Source of the DNA: Flectonema sp. DT1601
Lineage: Eukaryota
Reading direction: 5' to 3'
DNA: 64,000 nt
Assembly: GCA_964019425.1 (NCBI GenBank)
Contig: OZ025780.1
Span: 1,488,001 to 1,552,000, forward strand
This document shows positions 21,595-62,953 of this stretch, piece after piece (the first letter of the stretch is position 1; every line of letters starts with the position of its first letter). The notes beneath the pieces were generated by a model. The model ran no database searches. It saw only the letters and a program-made list of their open reading frames with translations, and was not told the DNA's origin. A program made the translations under genes and the position numbers.

Positions 21595-23144
21595 GTTCTA
21601 GTTTCTATTAGTATTTATTTATTTGTATTATTTTGTCGATATGTTTATGTCCGTCAGATCATAACGTTAATCAGATTAATTGTTAATTGTAAATAGTCTA
21701 AACCCCAATCCAAGTTCCCAAGGCTTGGCATAGATTTGAGTGACGCCTTACTGGCCTCCTCATCCTCTATTAGTGCCAGCAATGGTTTTTTTTCTTATAT
21801 TTTTCTTTTTCCTTTTACTCTAATATGAAATATTTTTGAACAAAATGTGATTATTAATTTTAAAAAAAAAAAAAAAAAACAATGAAAATAAATATATAAA
21901 AAAAAACATGCCTTGGGAATACAACCAAAGCCCCAACTATTCGGTCCTTTCTTTTTCCCTCTTGTTAATTGATCGCTCCACTCGTCGATCACCATAACCC
22001 TTGATCACCAAAACTTTGTGTGTGGAGCTTGTCGTTTTTGAAAACTTTGTGAGTGGAGCTTGTCATTTTTGAAAACTTTGTGTGTGGAACTTGTCGTTTG
22101 TGAAAACTTTGTGAGTGGAGCTGGTGGTTTTTGAAAACTTTGTGAGTGGAGCTTGTCGTTTTTTAAAACTTTGTGAGTTGAGCTTGTCATTTTTGAAAAC
22201 TTTGTGTGTGGAACTTGTCGTTTGTGAAAACTTTGTGAGTGGAGCTTGTCGTTTTTTAAAACTTTGTGTGTGGAGCTTGTCATTTTCTAAAAGTTTGTGT
22301 GTGGAGCTTGTTGTTTTTGAAAACTTTGTGTGCGGAGCTTATCATTTTTTAAAAACTTTGTGAGTGGAGCTGGTGGTTTTTGAAAACTTTGTGTGTGGAG
22401 CTTGTCGTTTTTGAAAACTTTGTGTGTGGAGCTTGTCGTTTTTGAAAACTTTGTGTGTGGAGCTCGTCGTTTTTGAAAACTTTGTGTGTGAAGCTTGTCG
22501 TTTTTGAAAACTTCGTGTGTGGAGCTTATCGTTTTTGAAAAAATTGTGTGTAGAGCTTGTCGTTTTTTTACAGTTTTTGTGTGGAGCTTGTCGTTTTTTA
22601 CAACTTGGTGTGGAGCTGGTGGTTTTTGAAAACTTTGTGTGTGAAGCTGGTGGTTTTTTTAAAGTTTTTGTGTGGTTGAGGCGATCGGCAGGGTGGAGGT
22701 GTTCACGATTTTTCACTTTGCTACACGAAAATTCACGATTTTTCACTTAATTTTTTGCTGCTTTTTGGTAGTGAAATCCTGTGAAAATGTGTGAAAATGT
22801 GTGAATTCTAGTGAAAAAAGTGAGTGATATCCAGATGGTACCGTTGGTGCTGGTGTGCTGTGCGATGTCAAACCTGTTCAGTTTGCCATACGTCATGTCA
22901 CTTTGACAACTAAATGGGCATCGCTTGTGCCCAGTGACCCATCACCCTTCCTGACCATCGCTTGTGGTGAGGTTCCGGACTTTGGACCGGCGCATCGCGT
23001 GTGCGGTGGGTTTAATCACTGAGGGGGCTCATTCTCGTTCACACTGTTCTGTTCTGTGGTGTCTTTCCATTACTCCTCCCATCTCTGCCAGGAGACAGCC
23101 TGACAACCCATATTGATATTGCTTGAGAGACAATGAGAGGTAAT

Positions 23145-26255: not shown

Positions 26256-27901
26256 GTGACCAACCTTGACATTCTTTCTTTTCTCTCCTGTTGTGACAAA
26301 CACAAAATACACACACAGCTTACAGTGTGTTCTTTGTGTATGTTTTCTTCAGGTGTGAGTAGTTTTTTTGTTCTTGCTCTTCAGGGAGGGCCTTAGCCAA
26401 AAGCTAACAGTCCAAATCTCACCTGGAAATTCAACTCAGTCCTTGTCAGTTTTGGCATCAAACTTGTAATGGTTTAATCATTACAGGTTATTTACTGAAA
26501 TATTTGTTCTAAAAGTTGCTAAGTATTTCTCACTTAGAAATTTTTTATTTTTTTATTTTCAGCTTAATTAGCTACAAATTGTTTCTACTAAGTGTTTCTC
26601 ACTTAGATTTTTTTTTTGCTTTTCAGCTCCTTAAAAGCTGCTAAGTGTTTCTGCTAAGTGTTTCTCACTTAGAATTTTATTTTTATGTTCGTTTTCTATC
26701 CCTTCTCCTATCCCTTTTGTTCAAAATAAGCGGGAGGAAATTCTCTCATTCACGCTAAGATGCACTCTGAACTTTGATTTTTTGATCTGAGTGTGAGGGA
26801 ATGACCTGTTAGTGCATTGGGCATAGGCTGGGCTGCAGTTTAGATGTCTTAGGTGTTAATAGGGGGTTCCTCTTAGCATTTTTCTTTGTTCCCACCTTAT
26901 GATTTTCTTGAAGAAAAAAAATAGAAGTCATAATGGTGCTTCCCTCTGGAAGGGTTGTAAGCCATGGTGTCCAACTAGATTAATGGACAAGTCTGGGATA
27001 ATCCCTGCCAGAGGGGCGAGTATTCTACCATGGTTGAAATACTCTGGCAACTGATCTTCAATTTTATGTTGTTTGTTAGCTGCTGGTGTAATTAAATCAT
27101 GTGTTGATACTTGCATTTGTTTATTTGTTATCTTTTACTACAATAACGCTTGCCTATATCTTTTCTTTTTATTCCCTATCTGTTCTGATCTGTTACTTCA
27201 TTTGTCTTGTTTAACTTCAGTTATATGCATTTTACTTTTTATTGTTTCCCATCTACTTTTTATTTTCTATTAGTTCTGGTCAGAAACTCCTGGGCAGCAA
27301 GAAGGAAAGTAGTTAAGTACTTCTGGGTGTTTGGCATCACCCCCCATAGTGAGCAAGTACAACAGGTAGCATTGGTAGTCTGTTGATCCTGAGTGATCCC
27401 AGCTACAGTTTTGTTTTTCTTTCTTTTTTTTAGAAGAAGATCAGGACATCCAAGCACTGCTGGATAGTTGCTGAATGCAGGGCCTGCCTGTGGCATTATA
27501 ATAACAGGCTAAGTCATTTGTAGTTCATAGTTTACCTTTGATTTTATAACTTCACACAGGGTACTATGAACGATGAGAGATCCAGTGGGATCACTCAGGG
27601 TCTAGTAGAGACCACCAATGTTGTGCGTTGATAGGCAAGGTGACCAACCTTGACATTCTTTCTTTTCTCTCCTGTTGTGACAAACACAAAATACACACAC
27701 AGCTTACAGAATTTCGATAAAGTGGGAAGTAACGGACTGGGAGCTTTTGGCTCCTGCCCTATTCCCGATGTAAACTTTCTTTTAATTTTTATTTTTTTTT
27801 AACAGGCCCAAAGGGCGACAATGATGGTTGCTGACCAAGGAATAATATTCAAATGAATTTTCGTTTCAAAGAAACGAACAGAATTAAGAGAGAGGCAGAG
27901 G

Positions 27902-27932
<31 letters not shown>

Positions 27933-28274
27933 GAAAAAAAAAAATGAAGAGGAAATAATCAAACATGAAAAAAAAAAAAAAAAAAAATATATATATATAA
28001 ACAAAAAATGTTGTATGAAAAAGGAAAAAAAAGAAAAAAAAAAGACCAGAAAAGGAAAGAGAAAATGAAAAGGTATAATATTATTGTGGGGATATGAGGG
28101 ATAGCAGGGAGATGCTCTTTTTTTTTTTTTTTTTTTTTTTTTCTTATTTATTATTTAAAAAAGTGTTCTTTGTGTATGTTTTCTTCAGGTGTGAGTAGTT
28201 TTTTTGTTCTTGCTCTTCAGGGAGGGCCTTAGCCAAAAGCTAACAGTCCAAATCTCACCTGGAAATTCAACTCA
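26256..28274 (+). mobile_element. Element B copy 1: one 1384-bp unit plus ~180 bp repeat, interrupted by element A at 27709-28162
   Basis: GTGACCAACC at 26256 recurs at 27640; ends at GGAAATTCAACTCA; inserted in the 31-bp minisatellite with no TSD; non-coding. Confidence 0.85.
27709..28162 (-). mobile_element. Element A, short truncated copy (head only)
   Basis: Fixed end GAATTTCGATAAAGTGGG at 27709; the B sequence resumes at 28163 with a 1-2 bp loss. Confidence 0.9.
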
Positions 28275-29391: not shown

Positions 29392-29775
29392 CCATGGTGT
29401 CCAACTAAATTAAAGGACAAGTCTGGGATAATCCCTGCCAGAGGGGCGAGTATTCTACCATGGTTGAAATACTCTGGCAACTGATCTTCAATTTTATGTT
29501 GTTTGTTAGCTGCTGGTGTATCTTGATCATGTGTTGATACTTGCATTTTTTTATTTGTAATCTTCTATTACAATTCTCTTTCTGTTCTGGTCTGTTACTT
29601 CATTTGTCTTGTTTAACTTCAGTTATATCCATTTTACTTTTTATTGTTTCCCATCTACTTTTTATTTTCTATTAGTTCTGGTCAGAAACTCCTGGGCAGC
29701 AAGAAGGAAAGCAGTTGAGTACTTCTGGGTGTTTGGCATCACCTCCCATAGTGAGCAAGTACAACAGGTAGCATT
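29392..29775 (+). mobile_element. Element B truncated copy, cut by element A at 29776
   Basis: Near-identical to 38036-38420. Confidence 0.85.
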
Positions 29776-30064
29776 GAATTTCGATAAAGTGGGAAGTAAC
29801 GGACTGGGAGCTTTTGGCTCCTGCCCTATTCCCGATGTAAACTTTCTTTTTATTTTTATTTTTTTTTAACAGGCCCAAAGGGCGACAATGATGGTTGCTG
29901 ACCAAGGAATAATATTCAAATGAATTTTCGTTTCAAAGAAACGAACAGAATTAAGAGAGAGGCAGAGGAAAAAAAAAAAAAAAGAAAGAAAAGAAAAGAA
30001 AAGAAAAAAAAAAATGAAGAGGAAATAATCAAACATGAAAAAAAAAAAAAAAAAAAATATATAT

Positions 30065-30840
30065 CAGTCATTCCTTTTTTTTGCGAACAAATTTTAGACA
30101 TTGAAAAAGATTTTCAAAAAAAAATTGTAAAATTTTCGATCGAAGCGGCATTTTAATGCGCTGCATCATTGGGTTCATTTCCGTCCGAAATCGGGAGGTT
30201 GGCATCACATACTTGTCACCCGAATTGAGAAAAGAGATTTTGTGGTTTACTAAATCAGCTCAGCCGTGGACAAGTACCAAAACTAAAAATTAATCGAAGG
30301 GTCTAATTTTACACTGCCGGTCCAGCGGGATCCAGAGAAAAAATAATCGAGCAAAAATATATTAAAGAGTACTAAGCATGTGCCGGTGAGGCAGATTGTT
30401 ACTACCTGTCTTTTTGGACCTACTTTGATACTTAATGATCATTATCACCACCACAGATGCAACATTTTCCTTACATAATTGCTACTAGGGTTGATTTGTT
30501 AGTAAAAAGGTGCATATCTCTTGAGTGCGGGAGAAGGGGGAAAAAATAGTGAAAAAAAAAAATTAGGGGTGTTTTTTACTCAGATTTTCTCGATCTTTCC
30601 ATTCCAGGTCTGGGATTAATATTTATCATTGAGTAGTACCAAGGAAATGTTGCAAAGAGACGTTTATCTCTTTTTAGCAGCACTTACCATGTTTAAAAGT
30701 ATATCCCTATGCCTAATTTTACAGATCGCACCCTCCCCGATTCCAAAAAATAAAAAATCGAGCAAAAGTAACATATCGTGTAACCTTGCTCAGGCGGTGA
30801 GAAAATGGTGTTTTTTGTTCGCAAAAAAAAGGAATGACTG
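30065..30840. mobile_element. Non-autonomous TIR element X inserted in (TA)n
   Basis: TIRs CAGTCATTCCTTTTTTTTGCGAACAAA / TTTGTTCGCAAAAAAAAGGAATGACTG; the first ~370 bp are near-identical to 63223-63597. Confidence 0.9.
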
Positions 30841-30850
30841 ATATATATAT

Positions 30851-32574
30851 TAGTCATTCCAAAAATAACCGGCCGCGAAAACCAGTTTTGCTTCGAGCAG
30901 CCGTTGGTCAAAAATGCATCCATTTTCGAGATTTTTTACGAGGTGGAAAGGTTCGGCCCCAATCTCTCATTTTACGCGATGGGATTATTTTTTTTTCACT
31001 TTTTTTACTGACCGTTGGAACCCGACAGGTGCGTTATGGGTACTAAGAGAATGTCACTGTCGGCACGGAAAAGTTAATCCTGTTGCTGCATTTAATTTTT
31101 TTCTGGAAAAAAAAGGGAAATGCATCAGAGATTGGCATTTTTTCTCGTAACTACACTTATTATTCCCTTAAGCACCAGCTTAAACTTCTCTTGTCACATG
31201 TGCCACGAGATGCCAGCTGAGTATGTCGTCGCGGATTTGCCAGAACCGGTAATGAGGACGCTAGATCGGAGTGGGAGAAAAGGCAATCTGCATCGCATGC
31301 CTCCGGAAATACAAGCACTTCGGGAATACAAGAACCGACAAGGCGTGCTCCTCAGACAACTACAACTGCACCTCGCACACTAACGCGAAAAGATGGAATC
31401 CGAAGTTCAACAAGCTTCTTGAGCCACCCTGCCGTGACTTCGCGGTAGTCTTGAAATCCCCGGCGTATGCTCCTCTGCGCTCAATCTGCAACGCTTGCTA
31501 CCAGCGAGCAAAAAGGCTGACTAGTGATCCGCATTACGCATCCGTCAGTGTCCCTGCAGAGCCGATCAATCCGGAACCGCTCTCCGATATTTTTGAACGC
31601 GTGAAAGAATCAGTTCCTGCTGTCCGTTCTCAGTTTTTGAGACTCTGTCTCACGCTAAGCTACACTGATAGCCAGATTAATGCCCATGTCAGGGATTCTT
31701 CAATGCGTAAGCAGCTACAGAGGCTGGAACAGCACGATCCCTCCCAATCAGTAAAGCAGCGCAGCCAAGACAGAGATATCTGGAACTTCTGGATTTCCAA
31801 TGCACGCCCTGAGTCAAACCGCGTGGTCCTCAGCAAAGACTACATAACCGGCGAGACAAGTAAAGAGACAGTCCTCCATGTAAAAGAACCATACCTTGCC
31901 TTGGAGTGCCTTCTGCAGAACTCACACAGCTATCTCATATGCTCAGTTTTGTGACAAAAGGCCTAAATGTGGGTTGGTGCGAGCCAACTTTCACCTGCTA
32001 CCAACACTGAGAGTGAGTCTATTTCAGAAACAACTGAACCCACCTCAGATTCTGGTGAGTCTTCTACTGGCTCTTACTCTGTTAGTGAATCTAGTTCTAG
32101 TTCCAGTTTCAGATCGCTGTGTTCAACTAGTTCTATTATCGGTTCATTGCCGGTAGGAAAACGAAGAAAGCCAGCAGTAAAAGTTGCCAAAAAAGCTAAG
32201 CCTAATCAAAAATAAAAATAGGCTAAGTGTAGTGTAAGATGTACAAGGTACTGTTTTGCTTCGAGCAGCCTTTGTAACTGTTTCAGAGTAAAACATCCGA
32301 CCAGGTACGGCCGGATATAGAACCATATACCGATTTTTCATTTTAGCACCCGGGGCAGCCGATTAGACATCAACAGTTCCATTATTCAAAAATTTCACCA
32401 CACAAAAATGTCACAATTTTTTTGAATCTCAGCTGCATTTTTTTGAATCGCAGCGGGAATGAAATCGGCGGTGCAAAAGCGATTAAAATGGGTATTCGGT
32501 TTTAAGTTTTACTCCCTATTTTCACCCATGAAATACTGGAACCCTAAAATGGACGGTTATTTTTGGAATGACTA
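30851..32574 (+). mobile_element. TIR element Y (related termini), with internally deleted coding remnants 31271-32215
   Basis: TIRs TAGTCATTCCAAAAATAACCG / CGGTTATTTTTGGAATGACTA within (TA)n; Cys-motif ORF (CIAC, CNAC) followed by a Ser-rich frame. Confidence 0.85.
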
Positions 32575-33941
32575 ATATATATAAATAAAAAACGTTGTAT
32601 GAAAAAGGAAAAAAAAGAAAAAAAAAAGACCAGAAAAGGAAAGAGAAAATGAAAAGGTATAATATTATTGTGGGGATATGAGGGATAGCAGGGAGATGCT
32701 CTTTTTTTTTTTTTTTTTTTTTTTCTTATTTATTATTTAAAAAAAGGAAACAATCAGTTTAGCGTCTCGATCAGGACGGAAAATAGAAATTAATCGACAT
32801 AGTTGATCGATAGAAAAAAAAAACAATGATAACATTGTTTATTCATTTTTTTTTTTTTTTTTTTTTTTTTAAATCTTTTTAATTATTTTAAAGAAAAAAC
32901 AATCAGTTTAGCGTCTTGACCAGGACGGAAAATAGTAAGTAATCGACATAGTCGATCGATAAAAAAAAAACAATGATAACATTGTTTATTCCTTTTTTTT
33001 TTTTTTTATTCTTTTTATTTATTTTTAAAGAAAAAACAATCAGTTTAGCGTCCTGACCAGGACGGAAAATAGAAAGTAATCGACATAGTCGATCGATAAA
33101 AAAAAACAATGATAACATTGTTTATTCTTTTTTTTTTTTTTTATTTTAATTCTTTTTATTTATTTTTTAAAAAGAAAAAAAATGGAAAATAGAAATTAGT
33201 CAACAAAGTCGAACGATAAAAAAAAACACAATGATAACATTGTTTATTCTTTTTTTTTTTATTTTTTTTATATTCTTTTTTATTAATCTTGAAAAAAAAA
33301 ACAATCAGTTTAGCGTCTTGACCAGGACGGAAAATAGAAAGTAGTCGACATAGTCGATCGATAAAAAAAACAATGATAACATTGTTTATTCTTTTTTTTT
33401 TTATTTTAAATTCTTTTTATTTATTTTTTAAAGAAAAAAAACGGAAAATAGAAATTAGTCGACAAAGTCGAACGATAAAAAAAAACAATGATAACATTGT
33501 TTATTCTTTTTTTTGTATTTTTTTATATTCTTTTTTATTAATTTTGAAAAAAAAAACAATCAGTTTAGCGTCTTGACCAGGACGGAAAATAGAAAGTAAT
33601 CGACATAGTCGATCGATAAAAAAAACAATGATAACATTGTTTATTCTTTTTTTTTTTTTTTTTTTAAATTCTTTTTATTAATTTTTTAAAGAAAAAAAAC
33701 GGAAAATAGAAATTAGTCAACAAAGTCGAACGATAAAAAAAAACAATGATAACATTGTTTATTCTTTTTTTTTATTTTTTTTTTTTAATATTTTTTTTTT
33801 TTTTTATTTTGAAAAAAAAACAATCAGTTTAGCGTCTTGACCAGGACGGAAAATAGAAAGTGATCGACATAGTCGATCGATAAAAAAACAATGATAACAT
33901 TGTTTATTCTTTTTTTTTATTTTAAATTCTTTTTATTATTT

Positions 33942-33981
33942 ATATCTGTACTTTATTGTTTTACATATCTGTACTTTATTG
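33942..33981 (+). other. Two tandem spliced-leader relics (ATATCTGTACTTTATTG x2) at the LINE 5' end
   Basis: The 17-mer occurs at 33942-33958 and 33965-33981. TCTGTACTTTATTG is the 3' end of euglenozoan SL exons (e.g. Leishmania, Diplonema). It lies 20 nt upstream of the ORF1 ATG. Confidence 0.8.
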
Positions 33982-34001
33982 ATTTCCAATAATTAACAAC
34001 T

Positions 34002-36609
34002 ATGACATTGGATCCAGGCCTATTTGGCCTGATGCTGGAGAAGATGGTGGGCATGCTCGGTGAGATGCAGAAGGGTTTGAATGTAAAGGGGGTTACTAAA
34101 CGCAACGGGGGAGAGAAGTCATCGGTGGATTTATCGCCGATGAATGAAGAATGGACGAGGGTACGTGGTAAACGGCCCAAGGTAGTGAAGCGCAAGTCTG
34201 AGCCGGCTCAAGCGCTGAATTCGTTTAGTGGACTGAAGGAGGTCCGATGTGATGGGAAGGCAGCAACGAATTTCGAAAAGGTGGGAAGTAACGGACTGGG
34301 AGCTTTTGGCTCCTGCCCTATTCCCGATGTAAACTTTCTTTTTATTTTTTTTTTTTTTTTTAACAGGCCCAAAGGGCGACAATGATGGTTGCTGACCAAG
34401 GAATAATATTCAAATGAATTTTCGTTTCAAAGAAACGAACAGAATTAAGAGAGAGGTAGAGAAAAAAAAAAAAAAAAAAAAAAAAAAAAGAAAGAATAGA
34501 AAAAAAATATGAAGAGGAAATAATCAAACATGAAAAAAAAAAAAAAAAATAAAATATAAATAAAAAACGTTGTATGAAAAAGGAAAAAAAGAAAAAAAAA
34601 AGACCAGAAAAGGAAAGAGAAAATGAAAAGGTATAATATTATTGTGGGGATATGAGGATAGCAGGGAGATGCTCTTTTTTTTTTTTTTTTTTTCTTTTTT
34701 TTTTTATTTATTATTTAAAAAAAGAAACAATCAGTTTAGCGTCTCGATCAGGACGGAAAATAGAAATTAATCGACATAGTCGATCGATAGAAAAAAAACA
34801 ATGATAACATTGTTTATTCCTTTTTTTTTTTTTTTTTTTTTTATTCTTTTTATTTATTTTTAAAGAAAAAACAATCAGTTTAGCGTCCTGACCAGGACGG
34901 AAAATTGAAAGTGATCGACATAGTCGATCGATAGAAAAAAAACAATGATAACATTGTTTATTCCTTTTTTTTTTTTTTTTTTTTTTATTCTTTTTATTTA
35001 TTTTTAAAGAAAAAACAATCAGTTTAGCGTCCTGACCAGGACGGAAAATTGAAAGTGATCGACATAGTCGATCGATAGAAAAAAAACAATGATAACATTG
35101 TTTATTCTTTTTTTTTTTTTTTTTTTTTTTAAATCCTTTTAATTATTTTAAAGAAAAACAATCAATTTGCCGAATGTGCAAGAGAAGCGGTGGGACTGCC
35201 AACTCCGTGATGATGACTGGTCTGTTCCAGTAATTTCGATGTCAGGCGTGTTTAACACGTCGATTACGTGTGGTGTGTCACTGGGCACGGCCTCTGATGT
35301 AGATGCGATGATTAAACTCCGACCGGGAACAAACCTCTCGGTAATTTGCAAGAAAAACCCTGGGGGCGGTAAGAAGATACAGTTCCCGGCGGTGGTAAAC
35401 GACGGTGTACTGACACATCGGACCGGTTGGATTGTATCAACCGGGAAACCAGCTACCCTCTTCCGTGGAGACGCTCTGACTGCCGGTGACAATCGAGTGG
35501 TATTGTTCCACCACCACGCGCTCCACTCCAACGACAAGGTGCCTTCGCCTAGTGAGCTATGCAAGAAGGCCTCCGACTTCTACACGGCAGTTACGAACCT
35601 GCCCATCGAGCCGCACCTCTTGTGGCCTGCCAACAAGAAGGAATCAGACCCTCATGTTAAGTCTGTGAACATGAGGGTGCCAGCAGACGCTGTTGACGCC
35701 TTGAGAAGGGCAAGTGGGAGTGGTGGGTACTTCTTATCAGTACCGAATTTCGCAGACACAGCACCGTGCAGGACGTCAATCCAGCTCACGGTGGATTTTA
35801 AGTTAGCCTCATCGCTAGCCGGTGAACTCCGGTTACCTCTGAGGTTCTACCGCCACTCACGCAAACTGGGGGTTGTGTGTCTGAAGACCGACGAAGATTA
35901 CGTTCGATCGAAGCTGGGTGAGAATGCACTGCCGCCTCCACCTGAAGGCCTCAAGTTCTGTTTGAGGAGCCGAGCCATTGATGCGATGAGTTCGCTGGAA
36001 GTAGTGCAGGTCTGTGCTCACCAAGGGTGGGAGATTAACGTCGTTGCTCGGTACAGGAGCAGAAAGGAGCTTCCTAAGATGATTGTAGTGGCCAAGGAGA
36101 AACCCAAGAGTAACTTCATCATTCTTCGTGATGACATGATCACAATCAAAGAGGTGGGCCTCGGCAAGCAGAATCCCGATAAGATGGACCTGGACGAGTT
36201 TCCTCACCTCTGTCAACCTAACGCTGCGCCATCTGTTGGAATTGATTTATCGCCACCGCCTGTTTCTCAGCAAAATCAGCAATATCTGCAAACGCTTCAA
36301 TCGAACAAACAGCAGCTGCCCATACCGCCTTCGCAGTACAACTGTCAACAATCCGACATTTCTAAATTGGTATCGCAGGTTACTGAACTAACGGCTGCTG
36401 TGAAGAGTCTACGGCAGGACCTTGCTGAAGAGAGGGATGCGAATAGATGTCTCCGAAAGGAGATTGAGTCCCTAAATAATGAAAAAGGATCGGGATCTCA
36501 GAGGCTGACCGTCTCAAGTAGGCAACGAGCTAACTCTGTTGCTGCTACTAAGTCTGAAATGGCTGACCGTCTTGATCGGAATGAGAAACGGGACTACTCG
36601 CGGAATTAG
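34002..36609 (+). CDS. LINE ORF1 (570 aa after removing insert 34274-35168)
   Basis: The join ACG AAT TT|G CCG AAT gives ...GKAATNLPNVQEKRW...; C-terminal Q-rich and coiled-coil region; AATTT is duplicated at the junctions. Confidence 0.8.
34268..35163 (-). mobile_element. Element A copy inserted in LINE ORF1
   Basis: Fixed end GAATTTCGAAAAGGTGGG; truncated after ~3.5 satellite units; AATTT on both sides. Confidence 0.9.
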
Positions 36610-37655
36610 CAACCACTTCCAATTGACTGTTTATTGGGAAAGACTCCGTCCTTGGAGTACTATTATTCTGTGAGTGGACTTCTGGAACTCTATCGTAGTG
36701 GTTTTCCGAGACACCCTGGTCCGATGTCTGATATATCGCCGCTGAGAATACTTAGTTGGAATGCGCTGTCGATGGTAAAACACCATGAATCTCTGGTACG
36801 GCTCGTTCAATCGGCTAATCCTGACATCCTCCATATTCAAGAAACTTGGCTCACTGATCTGGTTCTTGATGAACAGATTCAACTTCAGGGATACACCTGC
36901 TTCCGTAGGGACAGAATCAGATTAAATTTTAATGGCAAGGCAAAACGCGGTGGTGGACTGGCGACTTTCTGCAGGGACTCCCTTGTGGTCAGGAGATTAT
37001 CGGATCCAACTGAGCGTAATTCACCGTTTGAGGTGTTAGTTGTCGAGGTAATGACAGACATCGGTCCGATTACGTCTTCTAATGTGTATATTCCGCAGAA
37101 TTTCTTGGTGCCGACCTCTGTTGTCTTCGGTGAAGTAGTATGTGGAGATTTCAATGCTCACCATCGGTCGTGGTCGAGGGTGGTTCCAACAAGTAGTTCG
37201 TCGCGAGGTCTGTCAGTTCTTGATTGGATTAACGGAAATGGACTGCAGATTTGCGATGTTCCGCTGGATACAAGACCTTGTTCAGAGACTTCACCTGATT
37301 TGTTTCTTGTCGACAGCAATATTGAGGTGTTGAATGTACACCAGTACAGTGCGTCTGATAGTGGGTCCGACCACACGCCAATAGTGGTTGACATCTCGGT
37401 ATATCCGGGCTGCTCACAAATTACCACTCCCGCTCACCGCCGCTGGTTCTACAACAAGTTCGAGGATGAGCACTGGGTCTCATTTCGCGTGCTAACTGAA
37501 GCGCGAGCTCATCGTTTGGAGGGGATGTCTAATGTGAACAAGCTTGGATGTGAATTTATTAGTCTAATTGAGGAGGTGGCTATTGAAACGCTTCCAAACA
37601 AATGGTTCAAATCTGATACGAAGCGGAGGAAGAAATTACCTAAGCTGAGACCTAA
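36610..37655 (+). CDS. LINE ORF2 part 1: apurinic-like (APE) endonuclease
   Basis: LRILSWNA, PDILHIQETWL, RRDR...GGGLA, NVYIP, GDFNAHH, PDLF and SDHTPI motifs; first Met at 36724. Confidence 0.95.
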
Positions 37656-37830
37656 ATTTCGAAAAGGTGGGAAGTAACGGACTGGGAGCTTTTGGCTCCT
37701 GCCCTATTCCCGATGTAAACTTTCTTTTTATTTTTTTTTTTTTTTTAACAGGCCCAAAGGGCGACAATGATGGTTGCTGACCAAGGAATAATATTCAAAT
37801 GAATTTTCGTTTCAAAGAAACGAACAGAAT

Positions 37831-40224
37831 TAAGATGCACTCTGAACTTTGATTTTTTGATCTGAGTGTGAGGGAATGACCTGTTAGTGCATTGGGCATA
37901 GGCTGGGCTGCAGTTTAGATGTCTTAGGTGTTAATAGGGGGTTCCTCTTAGCATTTTTCTTTGTTCCCACCTTATGATTTTCTTGAAGAAAAAAAATAGA
38001 AGTCATAATGGTGCTTCCCTCTGGAAGGGTTGTAAGCCATGGTGTCCAACTAAATTAAAGGACAAGTCTGGGATAATCCCTGCCAGAGGGGCGAGTATTC
38101 TACCATGGTTGAAATACTCTGGCAACTGATCTTCAATTTTATGTTGTTTGTTAGCTGCTGGTGTATCTTGATTATGTGTTGATACTTGCATTTTTTTATT
38201 TGTAATCTTCTATTACAATTCTCTTTCTGTTCTGGTCTGTTACTTCATTTGTCTTGTTTAACTTCAGTTATATGCATTTTACTTTTTATTGTTTCCCATC
38301 TACTTTTTATTTTCTATTAGTTCTGGTCAGAAACTCGTGGGCAGCAAGAAGGAAAGCAGTTAAGTACTTCTGGGTGTTTGGCATCACCCCCCATAGTGAG
38401 CAAGTACAACAGGTAGCATTGGTAGTCTGTTGATCCTGAGTGATCCCAGCTACAGTTTTGTTTTTCTTTCTTTTTTTTAGAAGAAGATCAGGACATCCAA
38501 GCACTGCTGGATAGTTGCTGAATGCAGGGCCTGCCTGTGGCATTATAATAACAGGCTAAGTCATTTGTAGTTCATAGTTTACCTTTGATTTTATAACTTC
38601 ACACAGGGTACTATGAACGATGAGAGATCCAGTGGGATCACTCAGGGTCTAGTAGAGACCACCAATGTTGTGCGTTGATAGGCAAGGTGACCAACCTTGA
38701 CATTCTTTCTTTTCTCTCCTGTTGTGACAAACACAAAATACACACACAGCTTACAGTGTGTTCTTTGTGTATGTTTTCTTCAGGTGTGAGTAGTTTTTTT
38801 GTTCTTGCTCTTCAGGGAGGGCCTTAGCCAAAAGCTAACAGTCCAAATCTCACCTGGAAATTCAACTCAGTCCTTGTCAGTTTTGGCATCAAACTTGTAA
38901 TGGTTTAATCATTACAGGTTATTTACTGAAATATTTGTTCTAAAAGTTGCTAAGTATTTCTCACTTAGAATTTTTTTATTTTTTTATTTTCAGCTTAATT
39001 AGCTACAAATTGTTTCTACTAAGTGTTTCTCACTTAGATTTTTTTTTTGCTTTTCAGCTCCTTAAAAGCTGCTAAGTGTTTCTGCTAAGTGTTTCTCACT
39101 TAGAATTTTATTTTTATGTTCGTTTTCTATCCCTTCTCCTATCCCTTTTGTTCAAAATAAGCGGGAGGAAATTCTCTCATTCACGCTAAGATGCACTCTG
39201 AACTTTGATTTTTTGATCTGAGTGTGAGGGAATGACCTGTTAGTGCATTGGGCATAGGCTGGGCTGCAGTTTAGATGTCTTAGGTGTTAATAGGGGGTTC
39301 CTCTTAGCATTTTTCTTTGTTCCCACCTTATGATTTTCTTGAAGAAAAAAAATAGAAGTCATAATGGTGCTTCCCTCTGGAAGGGTTGTAAGCCATGGTG
39401 TCCAACTAAATTAAAGGACAAGTCTGGGATAATCCCTGCCAGAGGGGCGAGTATTCTACCATGGTTGAAATACTCTGGCAACTGATCTTCAATTTTATGT
39501 TGTTTGTTAGCTGCTGGTGTATCTTGATTATGTGTTGATACTTGCATTTTTTTATTTGTAATCTTCTATTACAATTCTCTTTCTGTTCTGGTCTGTTACT
39601 TCATTTGTCTTGTTTAACTTCAGTTATATGCATTTTACTTTTTATTGTTTCCCATCTACTTTTTATTTTCTATTAGTTCTGGTCAGAAACTCGTGGGCAG
39701 CAAGAAGGAAAGCAGTTAAGTACTTCTGGGTGTTTGGCATCACCCCCCATAGTGAGCAAGTACAACAGGTAGCATTGGTAGTCTGTTGATCCTGAGTGAT
39801 CCCAGCTACAGTTTTGTTTTTCTTTCTTTTTTTTAGAAGAAGATCAGGACATCCAAGCACTGCTGGATAGTTGCTGAATGCAGGGCCTGCCTGTGGCATT
39901 ATAATAACAGGCTAAGTCATTTGTAGTTCATAGTTTACCTTTGATTTTATAACTTCACACAGGGTACTATGAACGATGAGAGATCCAGTGGGATCACTCA
40001 GGGTCTAGTAGAGACCACCAATGTTGTGCGTTGATAGGCAAGGTGACCAACCTTGACATTCTTTCTTTTCTCTCCTGTTGTGACAAACACAAAATACACA
40101 CACAGCTTACAGTGTGTTCTTTGTGTATGTTTTCTTCAGGTGTGAGTAGTTTTTTTGTTCTTGCTCTTCAGGGAGGGCCTTAGCCAAAAGCTAACAGTCC
40201 AAATCTCACCTGGAAATTCAACTC
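37831..40224 (+). mobile_element. Element B copy 2: ~1.77 head-to-tail units of 1356 bp
   Basis: Identical ORF-track entries 1356 bp apart (38003/39359, 38307/39663); ends at GGAAATTCAACTC; TAAGA microhomology at the other junction; 2-bp target loss. Confidence 0.92.
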
Positions 40225-40439
40225 GAGGTAGAGAAAAAAAAAAAAAAAAAAAAAAAAAGAAAGAATAGAAAAAAAATATGAAGAGGAAATAATCAAACAT
40301 GAAAAAAAAAAAAAAAAATAAAATATAAATAAAAAACGTTGTATGAAAAAGGAAAAAAAGAAAAAAAAAAGACCAGAAAAGGAAAGAGAAAATGAAAAGG
40401 TATAATATTATTGTGGGGATATGAGGATAGCAGGGAGAT

Positions 40440-40475
<36 letters not shown>

Positions 40476-41017
40476 TTATTATTTAAAAAAAGGAAACAAT
40501 CAGTTTAGCGTCTCGATCAGGACGGAAAATAGAAATTAATCGACATAGTCGATCGATAGAAAAAAAACAATGATAACATTGTTTATTCCTTTTTTTTTTT
40601 TTTTTTTTTTATTCTTTTTAATTATTTTTAAAGAAAAAACAATCAGTTTAGCGTCCTGACCAGGACGGAAAATTGAAAGTGATCGACATAGTCGATCGAT
40701 AGAAAAAAAACAATGATAACATTGTTTATTCTTTTTTTTTTTTTTTTTTTTTTTTTAAATCCTTTTAATTATTTTAAAGAAAAAACAATCAGTTTAGCGT
40801 CTTGACCAGGGCGGAAAATAGAAAGTGATCGACATAGTCGATCGATAAAAAAAAAACAATGATAACATTGTTTATTCCTTTTTTTTTTTTTTTTTTTTTT
40901 TATTCTTTTTATTTATTTTTAAAGAAAAAACAATCAGTTTAGCGTCCTGACCAGGACGGAAAATTGAAAGTGATCGACATAGTCGATCGATAAAAAAACA
41001 ATGATAACATTGTTTAT

Positions 41018-41052
<35 letters not shown>

Positions 41053-41656
41053 CTTTTAATTATTTTTTAAAGAAAAAACAATCAGTTTAGCGTCTTGACC
41101 AGGACGGAAAATAGAAAGTGATCGACATAGTCGATCGATAAAAAACAATGATAACATTGTTTATTCTTTTTTTTTTTTTTTTTTTAATCCTTTTTATTAT
41201 TTTAAAGAAAAAACAATCAGTTTAGCGTCTTGACCAGGACGGAAAATAGAAAGTGATCGACATAGTCGATCGATAAAAAAACAATGATAACATTGTTTAT
41301 TCTTTTTTTTTTTTTTTTTTTAAATTCTTTTTATTTATTTTTAAAGAAAAAAAAAACGGAAAATAAAAATTAGTCGACAAAGTCGAACGATAAAAAAAAA
41401 ACAATGATAACATTGTTTATTCTTTTTTTTTTTGTTTTTTTTTTTATTATTCTTTTTTATTAATTTTGAAAAAAAAACAATCAGTTTAGCGTCTTGACTA
41501 GGACGGAAAATAGAAAGTAATCGACATAGTCGATCGATAAAAAAAAACAATGATAACATTGTTTACTCTTTTTTTTTTTTTTTTTTAAATTCTTTTTATT
41601 TTAAAAAGAAAAAAAACGGAAAATAGAAATTAGTCGACAAAGTCGAACGATAAAAA

Positions 41657-43660
41657 TGAATTTAAAATAAAAAAAAAGAATAAACAATGTTATCATTGTT
41701 TTTTTTATCGATCGACTATGTCGATCACTTTCTATTTTCCGTCCTAGTCAATACGCTAAACTGATTGTTTTTTTTTTTCAAAATTAATAAAAAAGAATAT
41801 AAAAAAATACAAAAAAAAAGAATAAACAATGTTATCATTGTTTTTTTTTATCGTTCGACTTTGTCGACTAATTTCTATTTTCCGTTTTTTTTCTTTTAAA
41901 AATAAATAAAAAGAATTTAAAATAAAAAAAAAGAATAAACAATGTTATCATTGTTTTTTTATCGATCGACTATGTCGATCACTTTCTATTTTCCGTCCTG
42001 GTCAAGACGCTAAACTGATTGTTTTTTTTTTTTCAAAATAAAAAAAAAATATTAAAAAAAAAAAAATAAAAAAAAAGAATAAACAATGTTATCATTGTTT
42101 TTCTTTATCGTTCGACTTTGTTGACTAATTTCTATTTTCCGTTTTTTTTTCTTTAAAAAATAAATAAAAAGAATTTAAAAAAAAAAAAAAAAAAAAGAAT
42201 AAACAATGTTATCATTGTTTTTTTTATCGATCGACTATGTCGATTACTTTCTATTTTCCGTCCTGGTCAAGACGCTAAACTGATTGTTTTTTTTTCAAAA
42301 TTAATAAAAAAGAATATAAAAAAATACAAAAAAAAGAATAAACAATGTTATCATTGTTTTCTTTATCGATCGACTATGTCGATTACTTTCTATTTTCCGT
42401 CCTGGTCAAGACGCTAAACTGATTGTTTTTTTTTCAAAATTAATAAAAAAGAATATAAAAAAATACAAAAAAAAGAATAAACAATGTTATCATTGTTTTT
42501 TTTATCGATCGACTATGTCGATTACTTTCTATTTTCCGTCCTGGTCAAGACGCTAAACTGATTGTTTTTTTTTTCAAAATAAAAAAAAAATATTAAAAAA
42601 AAAAAAATAAAAAAAAAGAATAAACAATGTTATCATTGTTTTTTTTTATCGTTCGACTTTGTTGACTAATTTCTATTTTCCGTTTTTTTTCTTTAAAAAA
42701 TAAATAAAAAGAATTTAAAAAAAAAAAAAAAAAAAAGAATAAACAATGTTATCATTGTTTTTTTTATCGATCGACTATGTCGATTACTTTCTATTTTCCG
42801 TCCTGGTCAAGACGCTAAACTGATTGTTTTTTTTTTCAAAATTAATAAAAAAAAAAGAATATAAAAAAATACAAAAAAAAGAATAAACAATGTTATCATT
42901 GTTTTTTTTTATCGTTCGACTTTGTCGACTAATTTCTATTTTCCGTTTTTTTTCTTTAAAAAATTAATAAAAAGAATTTAAAATAAAAAAAAAAAAGAAT
43001 AAACAATGTTATCATTGTTTTTTTTATCGATCGACTATGTCGATTACTTTCTATTTTCCGTCCTGGTCAAGACGCTAAACTGATTGTTTTTTTTTTCAAA
43101 ATTAATAAAAAAGAATATAAAAAAAATAAAAAAAAAAAAGAATAAACAATGTTATCATTGTTTTTTTTTATCGTTCGACTTTGTTGACTAATTTCTATTT
43201 TCCATTTTTTTTCTTTTTAAAAATAAATAAAAAGAATTAAAATAAAAAAAAAAAAAAAAGAATAAACAATGTTATCATTGTTTTTTTTATCGATCGACTA
43301 TGTCGATTACTTTCTATTTTCCGTCCTGGTCAGGACGCTAAACTGATTGTTTTTTCTTTAAAAATAAATAAAAAGAATAAAAAAAAAAAAAAAAGGAATA
43401 AACAATGTTATCATTGTTTTTTTTTTATCGATCGACTATGTCGATTACTTACTATTTTCCGTCCTGGTCAAGACGCTAAACTGATTGTTTTTTCTTTAAA
43501 ATAATTAAAAAGATTTAAAAAAAAAAAAAAAAAAAAAAAATGAATAAACAATGTTATCATTGTTTTTTTTTCTATCGATCAACTATGTCGATTAATTTCT
43601 ATTTTCCGTCCTGATCGAGACGCTAAACTGATTGTTTCCTTTTTTTAAATAATAAATAAG

Positions 43661-43691
<31 letters not shown>

Positions 43692-44091
43692 ATCTCCCTG
43701 CTATCCCTCATATCCCCACAATAATATTATACCTTTTCATTTTCTCTTTCCTTTTCTGGTCTTTTTTTTTTTCTTTTTTTCCTTTTTCATACAACGTTTT
43801 TTATTTATATATATATATATTTTTTTTTTTTTTTTCATGTTTGATTATTTCCTCTTCATTTTTTTTTTTCTTTTCTTTTCTTTCTTTTTTTTTTTTTTTC
43901 CTCTGCCTCTCTCTTAATTCTGTTCGTTTCTTTGAAACGAAAATTCATTTGAATATTATTCCTTGGTCAGCAACCATCATTGTCGCCCTTTGGGCCTGTT
44001 AAAAAAAAATAAAATAAAAAGAAAGTTTACATCGGGAATAGGGCAGGAGCCAAAAGCTCCCAGTCCGTTACTTCCCACTTTATCGAAATTC
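41657..44091 (+). mobile_element. Element A copy inserted in inverted orientation within another A satellite
   Basis: Satellite orientation flips at ~41657; fixed end ...TATCGAAATTC at 44091. Confidence 0.88.
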
Positions 44092-44518
44092 AAAACAATG
44101 ATAACATTGTTTATTCTTTTTTTTTTATTTTTTTTTTTTATATTCTTTTTTATTAATTTTGAAAAAAAAACAATCAGTTTAGCGTCTTGACCAGGACGGA
44201 AAATAGAAAGTGATCGACATAGTCGATCGATAAAAAAAAACAATGATAACATTGTTTATTCTTTTTTTTTTTTTTTAAATCTTTTTATTTATTTTTTAAA
44301 AAGAAAAAAAAAAAACGGAAAATAGAAATTAGTCAACAACGTCGAACGATAAAAAAAAAACAATGATAACATTGTTTATTCTTTTTTTTTTATTTTTTTT
44401 TGTATTCTTTTTTATTAATTTTGAAAAAAAACAATCAGTTTTGCGTCTTGACCAGGACGGAAAATAGAAAGTGATCGACATAGTCGATCGATAAAAAAAC
44501 AATGATAACATTGTTTAT

Positions 44519-44554
<36 letters not shown>

Positions 44555-44609
44555 CTTTTTTTTTTTTTAAAGAAAAAACAATCAGTTTAGCGTCTTGACC
44601 AGGACGGAA

Positions 44610-45114
44610 TCTTATTGCGAAAATTGGTTCTTCAAAAGGAGCGGCCTGGGCCTTCGACAAGCTGCGGGAACTCAGGGGCGGTCGGTCCAATTCAAAGGAA
44701 GTTCCGGTTGCTGCTGATGATTTACTCGACCATTTCTTTGGTGATTCAAAATCCTCACCGTTATTAGTTCCTGATTCGAAGCCTGCTGATTATGATGACT
44801 CAAGCTGTGGTTCTTTTTCGATTCATGAGTTATACACGGTACTGAAGTCATTGACTCCCTCCCACGGGTCTGGTTTAGATTCTGTTTCTAATAATATGCT
44901 GCTTAACTTGGGTCCCCGTATGCTCCTACTATTGCTTAGACTCGCCTCGCTATCTTTCAGGAGGGGTATCTTTCCCTCTTGCATGAAAAAGGCCAAGGTG
45001 ATTATAATTCCGAAGGGAGGGGATCGTGACCCGCTTCTTCCGTCTTCTTACAGACCAATCTCTTTGACGTCAATTGTTTCGAAGTGCTTGGAGTCGCTTG
45101 TGGGTAATCGAATT
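44610..45114 (+). CDS. LINE ORF2 part 2: linker and RT domains 0-2
   Basis: FSIHELYTVLKSL, GSGLDSV, KKAKVIIIPKGG and SYRPISLTSIVSKCLE motifs; open from 44608. Confidence 0.92.
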
Positions 45115-45300
45115 TCGATAAAGTGGGAAGTAACGGACTGGGAGCTTTTGGCTCCTGCCCTATTCCCGATGTAAACTTTCTTTTTATTTTTATTTTTTTT
45201 TAACAGGCCCAAAGGGCGACAATGATGGTTGCTGACCAAGGAATAATATTCAAATGAATTTTCGTTTCAAAGAAACGAACAGAATTAAGAGAGAGGCAGA

Positions 45301-45334
<34 letters not shown>

Positions 45335-45510
45335 GAGAAAAAAAATGAAGAGGAAATAATCAAACATGAAAAAAAAAAAAAAAAAAAAATATATAAATAA
45401 AAAACGTTGTATGAAAAAGGAAAAAAAGAAAAGAAAAAAAGACCAGAAAAGGAAAGAGAAAATGAAAAGGTATAATATTATTGTGGGGATATGAGGGATA
45501 GCAGGGAGAT

Positions 45511-45543
<33 letters not shown>

Positions 45544-46594
45544 CTTATTTATTATTTAAAAAAAGGAAACAATCAGTTTAGCGTCTCGATCAGGACGGAA
45601 AATAGAAATTAATCGACATAGTTGATCGATAGAAAAAAAAACAATGATAACATTGTTTATTCATTTTTTTTTTTTTTTTTTTTTTTAAATCTTTTTAATT
45701 ATTTTAAAGAAAAAACAATCAGTTTAGCGTCTTGACCAGGACGGAAAATAATAAGTAATCGACATAGTCGATCGATAAAAAAAAAACAATGATAACATTG
45801 TTTATTCCTTTTTTTTTTTTTTTTTTATTCTTTTTATTTATTTTTAAAGAAAAACAATCAGTTTAGCGTCCTGACCAGGACGGAAAATAGAAAGTAATCG
45901 ACATAGTCGATCGATAAAAAAAACAATGATAACATTGTTTATTCTTTTTTTTTTTTTTTATTTTAATTCTTTTTTTTTATTTTTAAAAAGAAAAAAAAGG
46001 GAAATAGAAATTAGTCAACAAAGTCGAACGATAAAAAAAAACAATGATAACATTGTTTATTCTTTTTTTTTTTATTTTTTTTATATTCTTTTTTATTAAT
46101 TTTGAAAAAAAAACAATCAGTTTAGCGTCTTGACCAGGACGGAAAATAGAAAGTAATCGACATAGTCGATCGATAAAAAAAACAATGATAACATTGTTTA
46201 TTCTTTTTTTTTTTTATTTTAAATTCTTTTTATTTATTTTTTGAAGAAAAAAAACGGAAAATAGAAATTAGTCGACAAAGTCGAACGATAAAAAAAAACA
46301 ATGATAACATTGTTTATTCTTTTTTTTGTATTTTTTTATATTCTTTTTTATTAATTTTGAAAAAAAAACAATCAGTTTAGCGTCTTGACCAGGACGGAAA
46401 ATAGAAAGTAATCGACATAGTCGATCGATAAAAAAAACAATGATAACATTGTTTATTCTTTTTTTTGTATTTTTTTATATTCTTTTTTATTAATTTTGAA
46501 AAAAAAACAATCAGTTTAGCGTCTTGACCAGGACGGAAAATAGAAAGTGATCGACATAGTCGATCGGTAAAAAAACAATGATAACATTGTATAT

Positions 46595-46627
<33 letters not shown>

Positions 46628-49600: not shown

Positions 49601-50076
49601 ATAAATAAATAACGGTCAAGCTGAGCTGATCTTGTTTTTATTAAAATAAGGGGAGCGGGAGGGATGGAAGGAATAAAGGAAAAAAAAGAAAAGGTCGATC
49701 AATTGGATCTGGTCGTCGAGAAGAAGAAGACAATTATTTTAAAGGTCGATCGGCATAGCCGATCGTTGAGAAAAATAACCAGATATAAATACAATCAGTT
49801 TAAATAAAAAAAAAAAAAAAATAAATAAATAAAAAAAGTTTAACGATCAAGCTGAGCTGATCTTGTTTTTATTAAATTAAGGGGAGCGGGAGGGATGGAA
49901 GGAATAAAGGAAAAAAAAAGAAAAGGTCGATCAATTGGATCTGATCGTCGAGAAGAAGAAAACAATTATTTTTAAAAAAAATGATCGGTATAGCCGATCG
50001 TTGAGAAAAGAACAGATATAAATACAATCGGTTTTGGTGATCGACGAGTGGAGCGATCACTTGACAAGAAGGATGT
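45110..50076 (-). mobile_element. Long element A copy (~5 kb) in the RT domain: head, ~3.4-kb satellite, unique distal region
   Basis: Fixed end at 45110; satellite ~45568-48930; distal region with a GGTATCTC array (49239-49333), a ~190-bp duplication (49610-49800 / 49840-50030) and the leader motif 50031-50066. Confidence 0.88.
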
Positions 50077-51117
50077 GAACATTTGTTGGAGGGGAAGTTG
50101 GACCCTAGGCAGTCTGGTTTTACGCCGGGCAGAAATGTAGAAGAGAACATCTCGCTATTGGTGGATGCGGCTTCCGGTGTGCAGAAACTCTATGATGGTT
50201 ATGGAGCGATCATCCTCTTTGATATCTCTGGGGCATTCGATAACGTGGATCATCAAATACTCGTTGATAGATTGGTAGCTGTCCTGCCGGTTCCGTATGT
50301 TAAATGGCTTGCGAACTATCTTTCGGATAGAAATGTGAGTCTGTCTCTGGGATTAGATAATGGATCCAGATCCTGTACGAAGGGGGTCCCTCAAGGATCT
50401 GTGCTTGGTCCTCTCTTATTTCGGATCTTTGTCGACTCCCTGCCAGGTCTAATAAGTGGTGCTGATCTCAGTGTTCTGTTTGCTGATGATCTTGCCGTGT
50501 TTCTGCAACATGAGAAGATAGATGGGATCGAAGCGAAGGGCCTGTCCGTCATCTCTCAGATAGAAGGTTGGATGGTTTCCTCTAAGATGGAGGTAAACAT
50601 GAAGAAAACAGAGTACGTTGCCTTTGGTAAGCGCATCTCTGGCTCCGATGTCGAATGGAGTAGGGCACCTCGCTTTTACTTCCCATCGTCTGTTGAAGAG
50701 TTACACATGCCTACAGGCTCTGCCGGTGCTCTCACTGAGAAGCTTTCTCCATCAATAGGGGCAGTTCTGGATCTCGCTGATGCTTTGCTGCCACTGGAGA
50801 TTGATGGTTACCCGGTGACGAGACGTTCTGACTTTGTCCGACTGGCCTGTGCTCGTAAGAGCAAGGAGTTCAGGCTGAAAGCAGCGATCCCACTGAAACG
50901 TGTCAGGAGCGCGAAATACCTAGGAGTTATCATTGATGACTCGCTATGCTTCGACGAACAGGTGGATAAGATTGTGAAAACAATTCGAGCTGGTTGCGGT
51001 TTACTCAAAATGTTCTCTGCCTATGAGGTCAAAACTGATACCCTTCGTCAGCTTGTAGATGGTGCAGTGTTATCTCGAGCGTTCTTTGGACTAAAGGCTT
51101 TTTCTCCCTTTTTGTCT
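50077..51117 (+). CDS. LINE ORF2 part 3: reverse transcriptase core
   Basis: QSGF, FDISGAFDNVDH, GVPQGSVLGPLLF, FADD and KYLGV motifs. Confidence 0.96.
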
Positions 51118-51907: not shown

Positions 51908-51908
51908 T

Positions 51909-53480: not shown

Positions 53481-53583
53481 TGAACGTCTCTTTCCTCTAG
53501 TGTAATTTCTTATTTTATTTATTAGAATTCCTCAATTCTTCCGTCATGGTCATGACATTCTTTTTCGTTTCTCTAATGCACAA

Positions 53584-53678
53584 GAGATACCATCACTCAT
53601 GAGATACCAACGCACATACGAGATACCAGCACTCCAGAGATACCGACACGCTAGAGATACCAAGTCACTTGAGATACC
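53584..53678 (+). repeat. Six GAGATACC boxes with variable 9-11 bp spacers
   Basis: Starts at 53584, 53601, 53620, 53637, 53654 and 53671; counterpart on the minus strand at 49239-49333. Confidence 0.9.
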
Positions 53679-54240: not shown

Positions 54241-54280
54241 AGACGCTAAACTGATTGTTTTTTCTTTAAAAAAAAAAAAG

Positions 54281-54314
<34 letters not shown>

Positions 54315-55088: not shown

Positions 55089-55127
<39 letters not shown>

Positions 55128-57417: not shown

Positions 57418-57451
<34 letters not shown>

Positions 57452-59051: not shown

Positions 59052-59084
<33 letters not shown>

Positions 59085-59735: not shown

Positions 59736-59768
<33 letters not shown>

Positions 59769-60546: not shown

Positions 60547-60581
<35 letters not shown>

Positions 60582-61100: not shown

Positions 61101-61115
61101 TCCTTTTTTTAAATA

Positions 61116-61155
<40 letters not shown>

Positions 61156-61903: not shown

Positions 61904-61941
<38 letters not shown>

Positions 61942-62920: not shown

Positions 62921-62953
<33 letters not shown>

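Follow-up and report, generated by a model that had tools for sequence, protein, structure and literature searches.

A shared 3′ hairpin at a fixed distance from the insertion end of two non-coding repeat families: a candidate retrotransposition signal in a probable diplonemid genome

Two families of repeated elements, here termed A and B, carry a common hairpin at their fixed 3′ ends, and in both families the element terminates 24-25 nt downstream of the hairpin stem. Judged by sequence, the two families are related to each other, and both are non-coding. The explanation we favour, with a probability of about 0.8, is that they are mobilised as non-autonomous retroelements via a 3′ RNA recognition hairpin, which would thus act as a retrotransposition signal. 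That the partner enzyme is Penelope-like in particular is a proposal by analogy, and we consider it about an even bet. An earlier note on this DNA had described the hairpin as the recognition signal of an undescribed mobilisation system. A signal for a reverse transcriptase is still the best reading, but the second part of the claim had to be given up, since the anatomy is known from non-autonomous Penelope-like elements; for now, it would be premature to speak of a new system.

The window, i.e. the whole 64-kb stretch of DNA analysed here, harbors host genes in its first 21.6 kb, including those for TMEM43 and a histidine phosphatase, and the remainder is a nested repeat cluster. Of five matches to a host TPR protein, the best is a protein of Diplonema papillatum with 49% identity, and on this one protein the host is probably a diplonemid. 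The exact hairpin core GGGC-N-N5-CAAAA-N5-CA-GTCC occurs 13 times in the window, in nine A and four B copies. All 13 cores are located inside the repeat cluster (21900-64000), and the gene-rich part (1-21900) contains no exact match. The B-type core is found, for example, at 26388..26413 on the plus strand and consists of a GGGC/GUCC stem, a 1x2 internal loop, a UUAGC/GCUAA stem and a CAAAA loop; this copy ends at 26437, 24-25 nt downstream. The A-type core, e.g. at 44041..44066 on the plus strand, has the upper stem GGAGC/GCUCC, and its copy ends at 44091, 25 nt downstream. The B copies terminate at 26437, 28273, 38868 and 40224, and the A copies at 44091, 51907, 56249 and 61545 on the plus strand and at 27709, 29776, 34268, 37655 and 45110 on the minus strand. 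The motif and its coordinates had been given correctly in the earlier note, and so had its location at the fixed insertion end of both families: the fixed 3′ end of an element carries the hairpin in 13 of 13 copies. The covariance-model scan that had been asked for was run on the window and at E<=10 yielded 18 matches, namely the 13 cores with 68-92 bits, all of them at element termini, and five noise matches with at most 11.4 bits. A relaxed structure scan of the window returned the same 13 cores along with four unrelated matches. The motif is real and positioned.

The distance between hairpin and element end is nearly invariant. In A, the end lies 25 nt past the GTCC stem in eight of the nine copies and 24 nt past it in the ninth, and in B it lies 24 nt past the stem at 40224 and 24-25 nt past it in the other three copies. 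The terminal letters are GAAATTC in A and AACTC(A) in B. GAAATTC had been described as terminal in both families, which holds for A but not for B, since B extends 5-6 nt beyond it. The heptamer occupies positions +19..25 in A and +13..19 in B, i.e. it is 6 nt nearer to the stem in B. As GAAATTC is shifted by 6 nt while the stem-to-end distance is constant, the element end follows the hairpin rather than the heptamer; this comparison of two families is the sharpest new fact of the analysis, and it could be coincidence. The presence of GAAATTC in both A and B is weakly beyond chance (p 0.01-0.03). Neither an optional tail of 30-40 nt nor a second initiation site, both features of Penelope-like elements, was seen among the 13 ends, a small number of copies, which differ from each other by 1 nt. 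Neither a poly(A) nor a simple-repeat tail is present at any of the 13 ends, in agreement with the earlier view of elements without poly(A); the A-run following 44091 belongs to the target repeat and not to an element tail.

The fold proposed before is both the RNA minimum-energy structure and the centroid structure of 71-76-nt fragments from both families. Compared with shuffled sequences, the stability z-scores are -2.83 and -1.90 for A and -0.42 for B, i.e. the B fold is no more stable than its shuffles. The mean pair probability with RNA parameters is 0.98-0.99 for A and 0.43-0.93 for B, and with DNA parameters 0.82-0.84 and 0.27-0.61, respectively. From the G.U pair it had been concluded that the motif folds as RNA; the plus strand is indeed favoured, but this does not amount to proof of an RNA structure, because with DNA parameters the A hairpin is predicted to form as well. 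As already recognized, the lower stem is specific to each family. Four stem changes distinguish A and B and all of them keep the pairing. Covariation concerns two of the nine pairs, which are adjacent and change from G-C to U-A in a single family comparison, and it is not significant alone, with 54 of 500 shuffles equalling it (p ~0.11). The two swapped G-C pairs therefore exist as described, but not as proof of the structure. Overall, the hairpin appears plausible as a modelled structure, and covariation alone is no proof of it.

A and B had been regarded as unrelated, which is contradicted by 78 of 99 nt shared internally (E=4e-18). This 99-nt module, 79% identical, is located at 39587..39684 on the plus strand in B and at 49396-49490 on the minus strand in A, and contigs of other sequencing runs branch here. 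When the last 150 nt of A and B are compared, 22 of 27 nt are identical at equal offset from the end and none of 1000 shuffles reaches the score; when the last 400 nt are compared instead, 6 of 300 shuffles reach the alignment score. The flanks of this end island do not align across several hundred nt. The B monomer has a length of 1356 nt, and the longest A copy (~4.96 kb; 45110..50073, minus strand) is composed of a structured 5′ part, a 140-bp repeat array, ~400 unique nt and the hairpin. The idea of interchangeable cargo is borne out insofar as differing bodies are attached to the same end modules. Neither A nor B contains an ORF of more than 78 codons from ATG. In both families the 5′ ends vary with frequent 5′ truncation, and there is one fixed 3′ end. 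Within A, the 140-bp units (45595-48720) and the 5′ part (49545-50034) have small hairpins in common that show paired changes, from A-T to G-C in one and from C-G to G-C in another, and the internal A arrays may be under structural constraint as well. A long imperfect inverted repeat was seen by eye inside B (27370-27400 and 27580-27620).

Many of the copies are nested in a LINE. This element (33936..61820, plus strand) encodes an APE endonuclease, a reverse transcriptase and an RNase H, ends in a (TAAA)n tail and is flanked by a target duplication of ~7 nt. It sits in an A repeat array and is itself interrupted by A copies at five sites; nested A, B and other inserts have stretched a LINE of ~6 kb to 28 kb. 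Its closest other reverse transcriptase relatives are ~30-45% identical over part of the query. On the minus strand, a 5′-truncated A copy (27709..28162) is inserted in B with the loss of 1 nt, and another copy (29776..33935) contains DNA transposons (30064-32575) and is split by the LINE, with its array resuming at ~61820-62085. Further 5′-truncated copies on this strand lie in LINE ORF1 (34268..35165, with a 5-nt duplication inferred from the reading frame) and in the LINE (37655..44609, carrying a nested B tandem and a nested plus-strand A). The longest A copy is inserted in the LINE reverse transcriptase frame with a 2-nt overlap. On the plus strand, 5′-truncated copies are located in the repeat array of another A (41657..44091) and in the LINE (51113..51907, with a nested MITE-like insert). 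Two A copies of the same orientation (53526..61545, ends at 56249 and 61545) lie within the LINE 3′ UTR, and a further plus-strand copy (62086..63218) has its 3′ end removed by a DNA transposon and the window edge. Penelope-like elements can have an inverted 5′-truncated copy beside their 5′ end; back-to-back A junctions are present at 41656/41657, which is equally explained as nested insertion, and at ~62085. A 44-nt motif (21956..21999, plus strand) is identical at 40 of 44 positions to the 5′ end of the longest A and leads into arrays of a 31-bp repeat.

Within the window, monomer tandems are clear for B and not clear for A. One partial tandem (26256..28273, plus strand) consists of a 182-nt 3′ fragment (26256-26437) and a full monomer (26438-28273) with a nested A, the whole being flanked by 31-bp repeats. 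The other (37831..40224, plus strand) consists of a 5′-truncated piece of 1038 nt (37831-38868) and a full 1356-nt monomer (38869-40224), and is inserted in an A copy with 2 nt lost. In both cases the upstream piece is joined head to tail to the full monomer. A middle part of B (29392..29776, plus strand) comes after an array of the 31-bp repeat and is disrupted by an A copy. The B end-to-start junction recurs in contigs from two of the public sequencing runs, X1 and X4, which stem from two studies (runs are coded X1-X16, and one may be the window's own source). The tandems in the window and in these runs indicate that sequence continues beyond the fixed end in source loci, and the template thus probably continues past this end as well. 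In addition, a 291-nt contig of X4 links the B end to the B middle via a different stretch of 231 nt, and a 2250-nt contig of X1 enters B at the module shared with A. Run X3 contains an A-type end (62 nt, depth 25.6) with another upstream sequence, and the DNA beyond this end resembles the 31-bp repeat by eye; a 1382-nt contig of X5 extends 1323 nt beyond an A-type end. Run X7 shows almost no match to B in the part examined. B or part of it is present in runs from 12 studies with 12 different organism labels, which suggests that the host protist is a frequent passenger in the sequencing of other organisms.

A target duplication of constant length is absent, the net change of the target being -1, -2, 0, +2, +2, +2 and +5 nt. 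Of the four plus values, three were deduced from the continuity of LINE reading frames and one rests on protein P0001. The losses were determined against empty sites in the window and amount to 1 nt for the A copy at 27709 and 2 nt for B at 40224, and the target of the A copy at 44091 is unchanged within A-run variation. For four A insertions in the LINE, element and target overlap at both junctions, by 5, 2, 2 and 2 nt, and at site 45110 the 99% identical protein P0001 reads through. Contigs of X1 start at 50072 and 51906, as expected of empty sites, and may represent another LINE copy. The overlap of the fixed end with the target is often 1-6 nt, and the target base at this end equals the last base of the element in six of eight scorable A insertions (p 0.004), or in 6 of 10 (p 0.02) when two more insertions are entered as misses, namely the ninth A, which has no known empty site, and the only scorable B, which does not match. 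At the 5′ junctions, 2-5 nt are common to element and target. A consensus of the target sites is not evident by eye. The elements appear to have been active recently, given that the 3′ copies of B are identical at 181 of 181 positions and that two of the A insertions are missing from a LINE contig of X1.

For the favoured mobilisation of A and B as non-autonomous retroelements, the following course can be envisaged. Tandem arrays of the element would be transcribed through, and the hairpin would fold in the RNA and bind the reverse transcriptase-endonuclease of an autonomous element elsewhere in the genome. The nicked target strand would then prime reverse transcription within the RNA, 24-25 nt beyond the stem, often aided by 1-6 nt of pairing; if the arrays are indeed transcribed through, copying starts inside the RNA. 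The enzyme may drop off after a variable distance, giving rise to 5′-truncated copies, or may run on into the previous monomer, giving rise to partial tandems. Among the known systems, Penelope-like elements of the Chlamys/MRC1 type fit this tail-less, 5′-truncated and partial-tandem anatomy better than SINEs or Helitrons. Partial tandems (pseudo-LTRs) and head-to-tail copies, both traits of Penelope-like elements, are present in B; a further such trait, frequent 5′ truncation combined with a constant 3′ end that lacks poly(A), is seen in A and B alike. In the literature (references here and below are to those passages of PMC8557442, PMC9977147, PMC10161547, PMC10288648, PMC11167929, PMC12278014 and bioRxiv 10.64898/2026.07.22.740005 that concern the features named), Penelope-like elements with 5′ truncation, partial tandems and internal tandem repeats have been described, together with non-autonomous forms which are arranged in head-to-tail arrays and resemble their partners at the 3′ end (PMC8557442). 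Chlamys insertions are short and 5′-truncated (PMC9977147), and a Penelope-like protein initiates reverse transcription internally in vitro, in an AC-rich stem-loop (PMC11167929). The canonical hammerhead ribozyme, which canonical clades carry in the pLTR, is missing in Naiad and Chlamys (PMC8557442). For A and B, there was no hammerhead match in Rfam at E<=5 in 21000-64000 and no CTGANGA..GAAA core on their plus strand, which excludes the canonical Penelope-like clades but not Naiad/Chlamys.

Chlamys MRC1 of Chlamydomonas reinhardtii (PMC8557442) is, like A and B, non-coding and 5′-truncated, and shares with them partial tandems, head-to-tail copies, internal tandem repeats, the lack of a canonical hammerhead and a family resemblance concentrated at the 3′ end. 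A and B differ from it by their likely diplonemid host and by a microsatellite target not being evident, and a covarying 3′ hairpin with a fixed stem-to-end distance is undescribed for Chlamys in those sections of PMC8557442. The element Poseidon PAc of Anolis carolinensis (PMC11167929) also forms tandem loci with an insertion end internal to a longer template, and the AC-rich stem-loop at its start site may be compared to the A/B hairpin. However, PAc starts inside the stem-loop, at two sites and without target homology, and possesses a hammerhead, whereas A and B lack a hammerhead and have a single end, which lies 24-25 nt beyond the stem and often overlaps the target. Non-LTR retrozymes (bioRxiv 10.64898/2026.07.22.740005) are likewise non-coding tandem monomers and are thought to use Penelope-like machinery, but each of their units of 51-972 bp contains a type I hammerhead, in contrast to B with 1356 bp and none.

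An autonomous element ending in the hairpin, or a partner enzyme, is not present in the window, and no PLE RT was detected among the 13 window ORFs scanned. In the literature searched, with most subscription papers outside its scope, we found no report of Penelope-like elements in diplonemids and no description of this hairpin. Curation of 57 trypanosomatids resulted in INGI, CRE, VIPER and TATE only (PMC12278014). The ORFs listed for D. papillatum include LINE, SLACS, R2-like, TATE, MULE and Helitron types, Penelope is not in the list given in the passages on repeats, and a rigorous repeat annotation is still to come (PMC10161547). The seven supplementary files of the latter paper contain no Penelope, GIY-YIG, Athena or Helitron, where the repeat section of Additional file 1 may fall outside the covered text. 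In D. papillatum, 13 occurrences are known of a dispersed repeat with about eight 2.5-kb units in tandem (PMC10161547), which may be a similar tandem mobile element. Directly 5′ of the B hairpin, a pyrimidine tract ending in CAG (26365-26385) resembles by eye a splice or trans-splice acceptor; an intron is present in the pLTRs of Penelope and Chlamys (PMC8557442).

Other machineries were considered for the mobilisation of A and B. It is unlikely, if still to be reckoned with, that they are mobilised in trans by an ordinary stringent-3′ non-LTR retrotransposon, either an RLE-type R2/CRE-like element or a LINE outside the window, with tandems and chimeras arising from template jumping between RNAs that have the hairpin in common. 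The R2 reverse transcriptase is capable of template jumping, and 5′ truncation and short end overlaps, both observed here, are usual for LINE-type priming. One LINE is present in the window, and LINE, SLACS and R2-like ORFs are among those annotated in D. papillatum (PMC10161547). However, the only LINE in view has a (TAAA)n tail, a target duplication of ~7 nt and no such hairpin, and the 13 ends of A and B are untailed with no target consensus by eye. Its 3′ UTR is without same-strand similarity to the A and B ends (the score is reached by 644/1000 and 993/1000 shuffles); this LINE is a target of A and not an evident partner. Furthermore, a Pol III head (tRNA, 5S, 7SL) was not found on A or B, with 0 ARAGORN genes and no such Rfam match. 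The stringent LINE/SINE model put forward in the earlier note consequently fits less well, given elements without a tRNA or Rfam head and a window LINE without the shared 3′ structure. In the stringent pair UnaL2/UnaSINE1 of eel, a 3′ stem-loop is said to recruit the reverse transcriptase to non-coding RNA; A and B are unlike this pair in lacking a Pol III head and a simple-repeat tail, in continuing in tandem beyond the end, and in that no LINE in view shares their 3′ end. As an improbable alternative, A and B might belong to the rolling-circle (HUH) elements, as Helentron/DINE-1 or Replitron types, with the hairpin functioning as single-stranded DNA. Elements of this kind can contain internal tandem arrays and form head-to-tail copies, and the A hairpin forms as DNA too. 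The B hairpin, however, folds poorly as DNA, and the CTRR of a Helitron-type 3′ end is missing. Rep transposons generally have terminal hairpins (PMC10288648) and Helitron-like ORFs are reported in D. papillatum (PMC10161547), and Helitrons, Helentrons and Replitrons share with A and B a subterminal 3′ hairpin and the lack of a long target duplication (PMC10288648). But Helitrons insert between AT or TT (PMC10288648), and the first flank base is T at three of nine A ends and at none of four B ends. In addition to the missing AT/TT target and CTRR, A and B differ from Helitrons and Helentrons by variable 5′ ends and by targets that lose or repeat a variable number of up to 5 nt, and from Replitrons, which have short direct repeats at two defined termini (PMC10288648), by 5′ ends that differ from copy to copy. 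Tyrosine-recombinase elements (TATE/VIPER), judged by their general features, were ruled out since the 5′ ends of A and B vary.

We hold it to be similarly improbable that a reverse transcriptase outside the described Penelope-like and LINE clades is at work, which would use the hairpin as a ruler to fix its start 24-25 nt downstream inside tandem transcripts and would insert whatever cargo of 0.2-5 kb lies upstream, with neither a tail nor target specificity. The equal stem-to-end distance in two families, the modular bodies, the lack of a match in Rfam and the lack of a diplonemid Penelope-like report in the literature searched would suit such an enzyme. Against it, each anatomical feature has a Penelope-like precedent, and missing reports may merely reflect uncurated diplonemid repeats (PMC10161547). 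Lastly, the common 26 nt might be a functionless leftover of shared ancestry with paired substitutions arisen by chance, a possibility of still lower probability. It would agree with the other A/B module of similar identity (79%), with the p of ~0.11 for covariation and with the B z-score of -0.42. However, the flanking several hundred nt do not align, so that an island was kept and its surroundings were not; moreover, all four stem changes keep the pairing, the lower stem differs by family, and the 6-nt shift of GAAATTC leaves the distance to the end unaltered.

The choice of an internal start site by Penelope-like enzymes has so far been studied in vitro for one element (PMC11167929). The two natural families described here point to a stretch of ~50 nt as a candidate cis signal, for which they supply both a compensatory variant and a constant spacing of 24-25 nt. 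A Penelope-like partner would extend the group to the Euglenozoa, for which no prior report was found in the literature searched; with any other partner, the signal would lead to an enzyme inserting kilobase cargo without a tail.

Pattern scans for relatives of the hairpin gave no match in viral contigs, six in JGI metagenomes and five in GTDB genomes. The latter 11 were taken as chance, since neither tail occurs in any of them and pairing at all of the three free stem positions is seen only in L010, a bacterial contig. Rfam at E<=5 returned nothing relevant at the element ends and only an lncRNA model far below its cut-off. Likenesses to the hairpin ribozyme, HDV-like ribozymes, twister, domain V of group II introns and U6, seen by eye, were dropped because the required partner motifs are missing. 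The reverse complement of a loop 10-mer in the LINE 3′ UTR (61776-61785) was dropped as a link too (p ~0.05, wrong strand).

Beyond A, B and the LINE, the repeat cluster contains several DNA transposons. The one at 22676-25622 has TG...CA inverted ends and a 5-bp target duplication, sits in a 31-bp repeat array and on the minus strand weakly matches an integrase core (rve); a twister-P1 match within it (22935-23018; 31 bits vs a cut-off of 67) is probably due to chance. The MITE-like insert at 51180-51623 inside an A copy has inverted ends and 16-bp internal repeats. The elements at 30064-32575 and 63218-63596 are related DNA transposons with inverted ends starting with CAGT. They occupy the same TA run in two different A copies, with opposite orientations with respect to A, and this run is an insertion hot spot for CAGT-ended DNA transposons.
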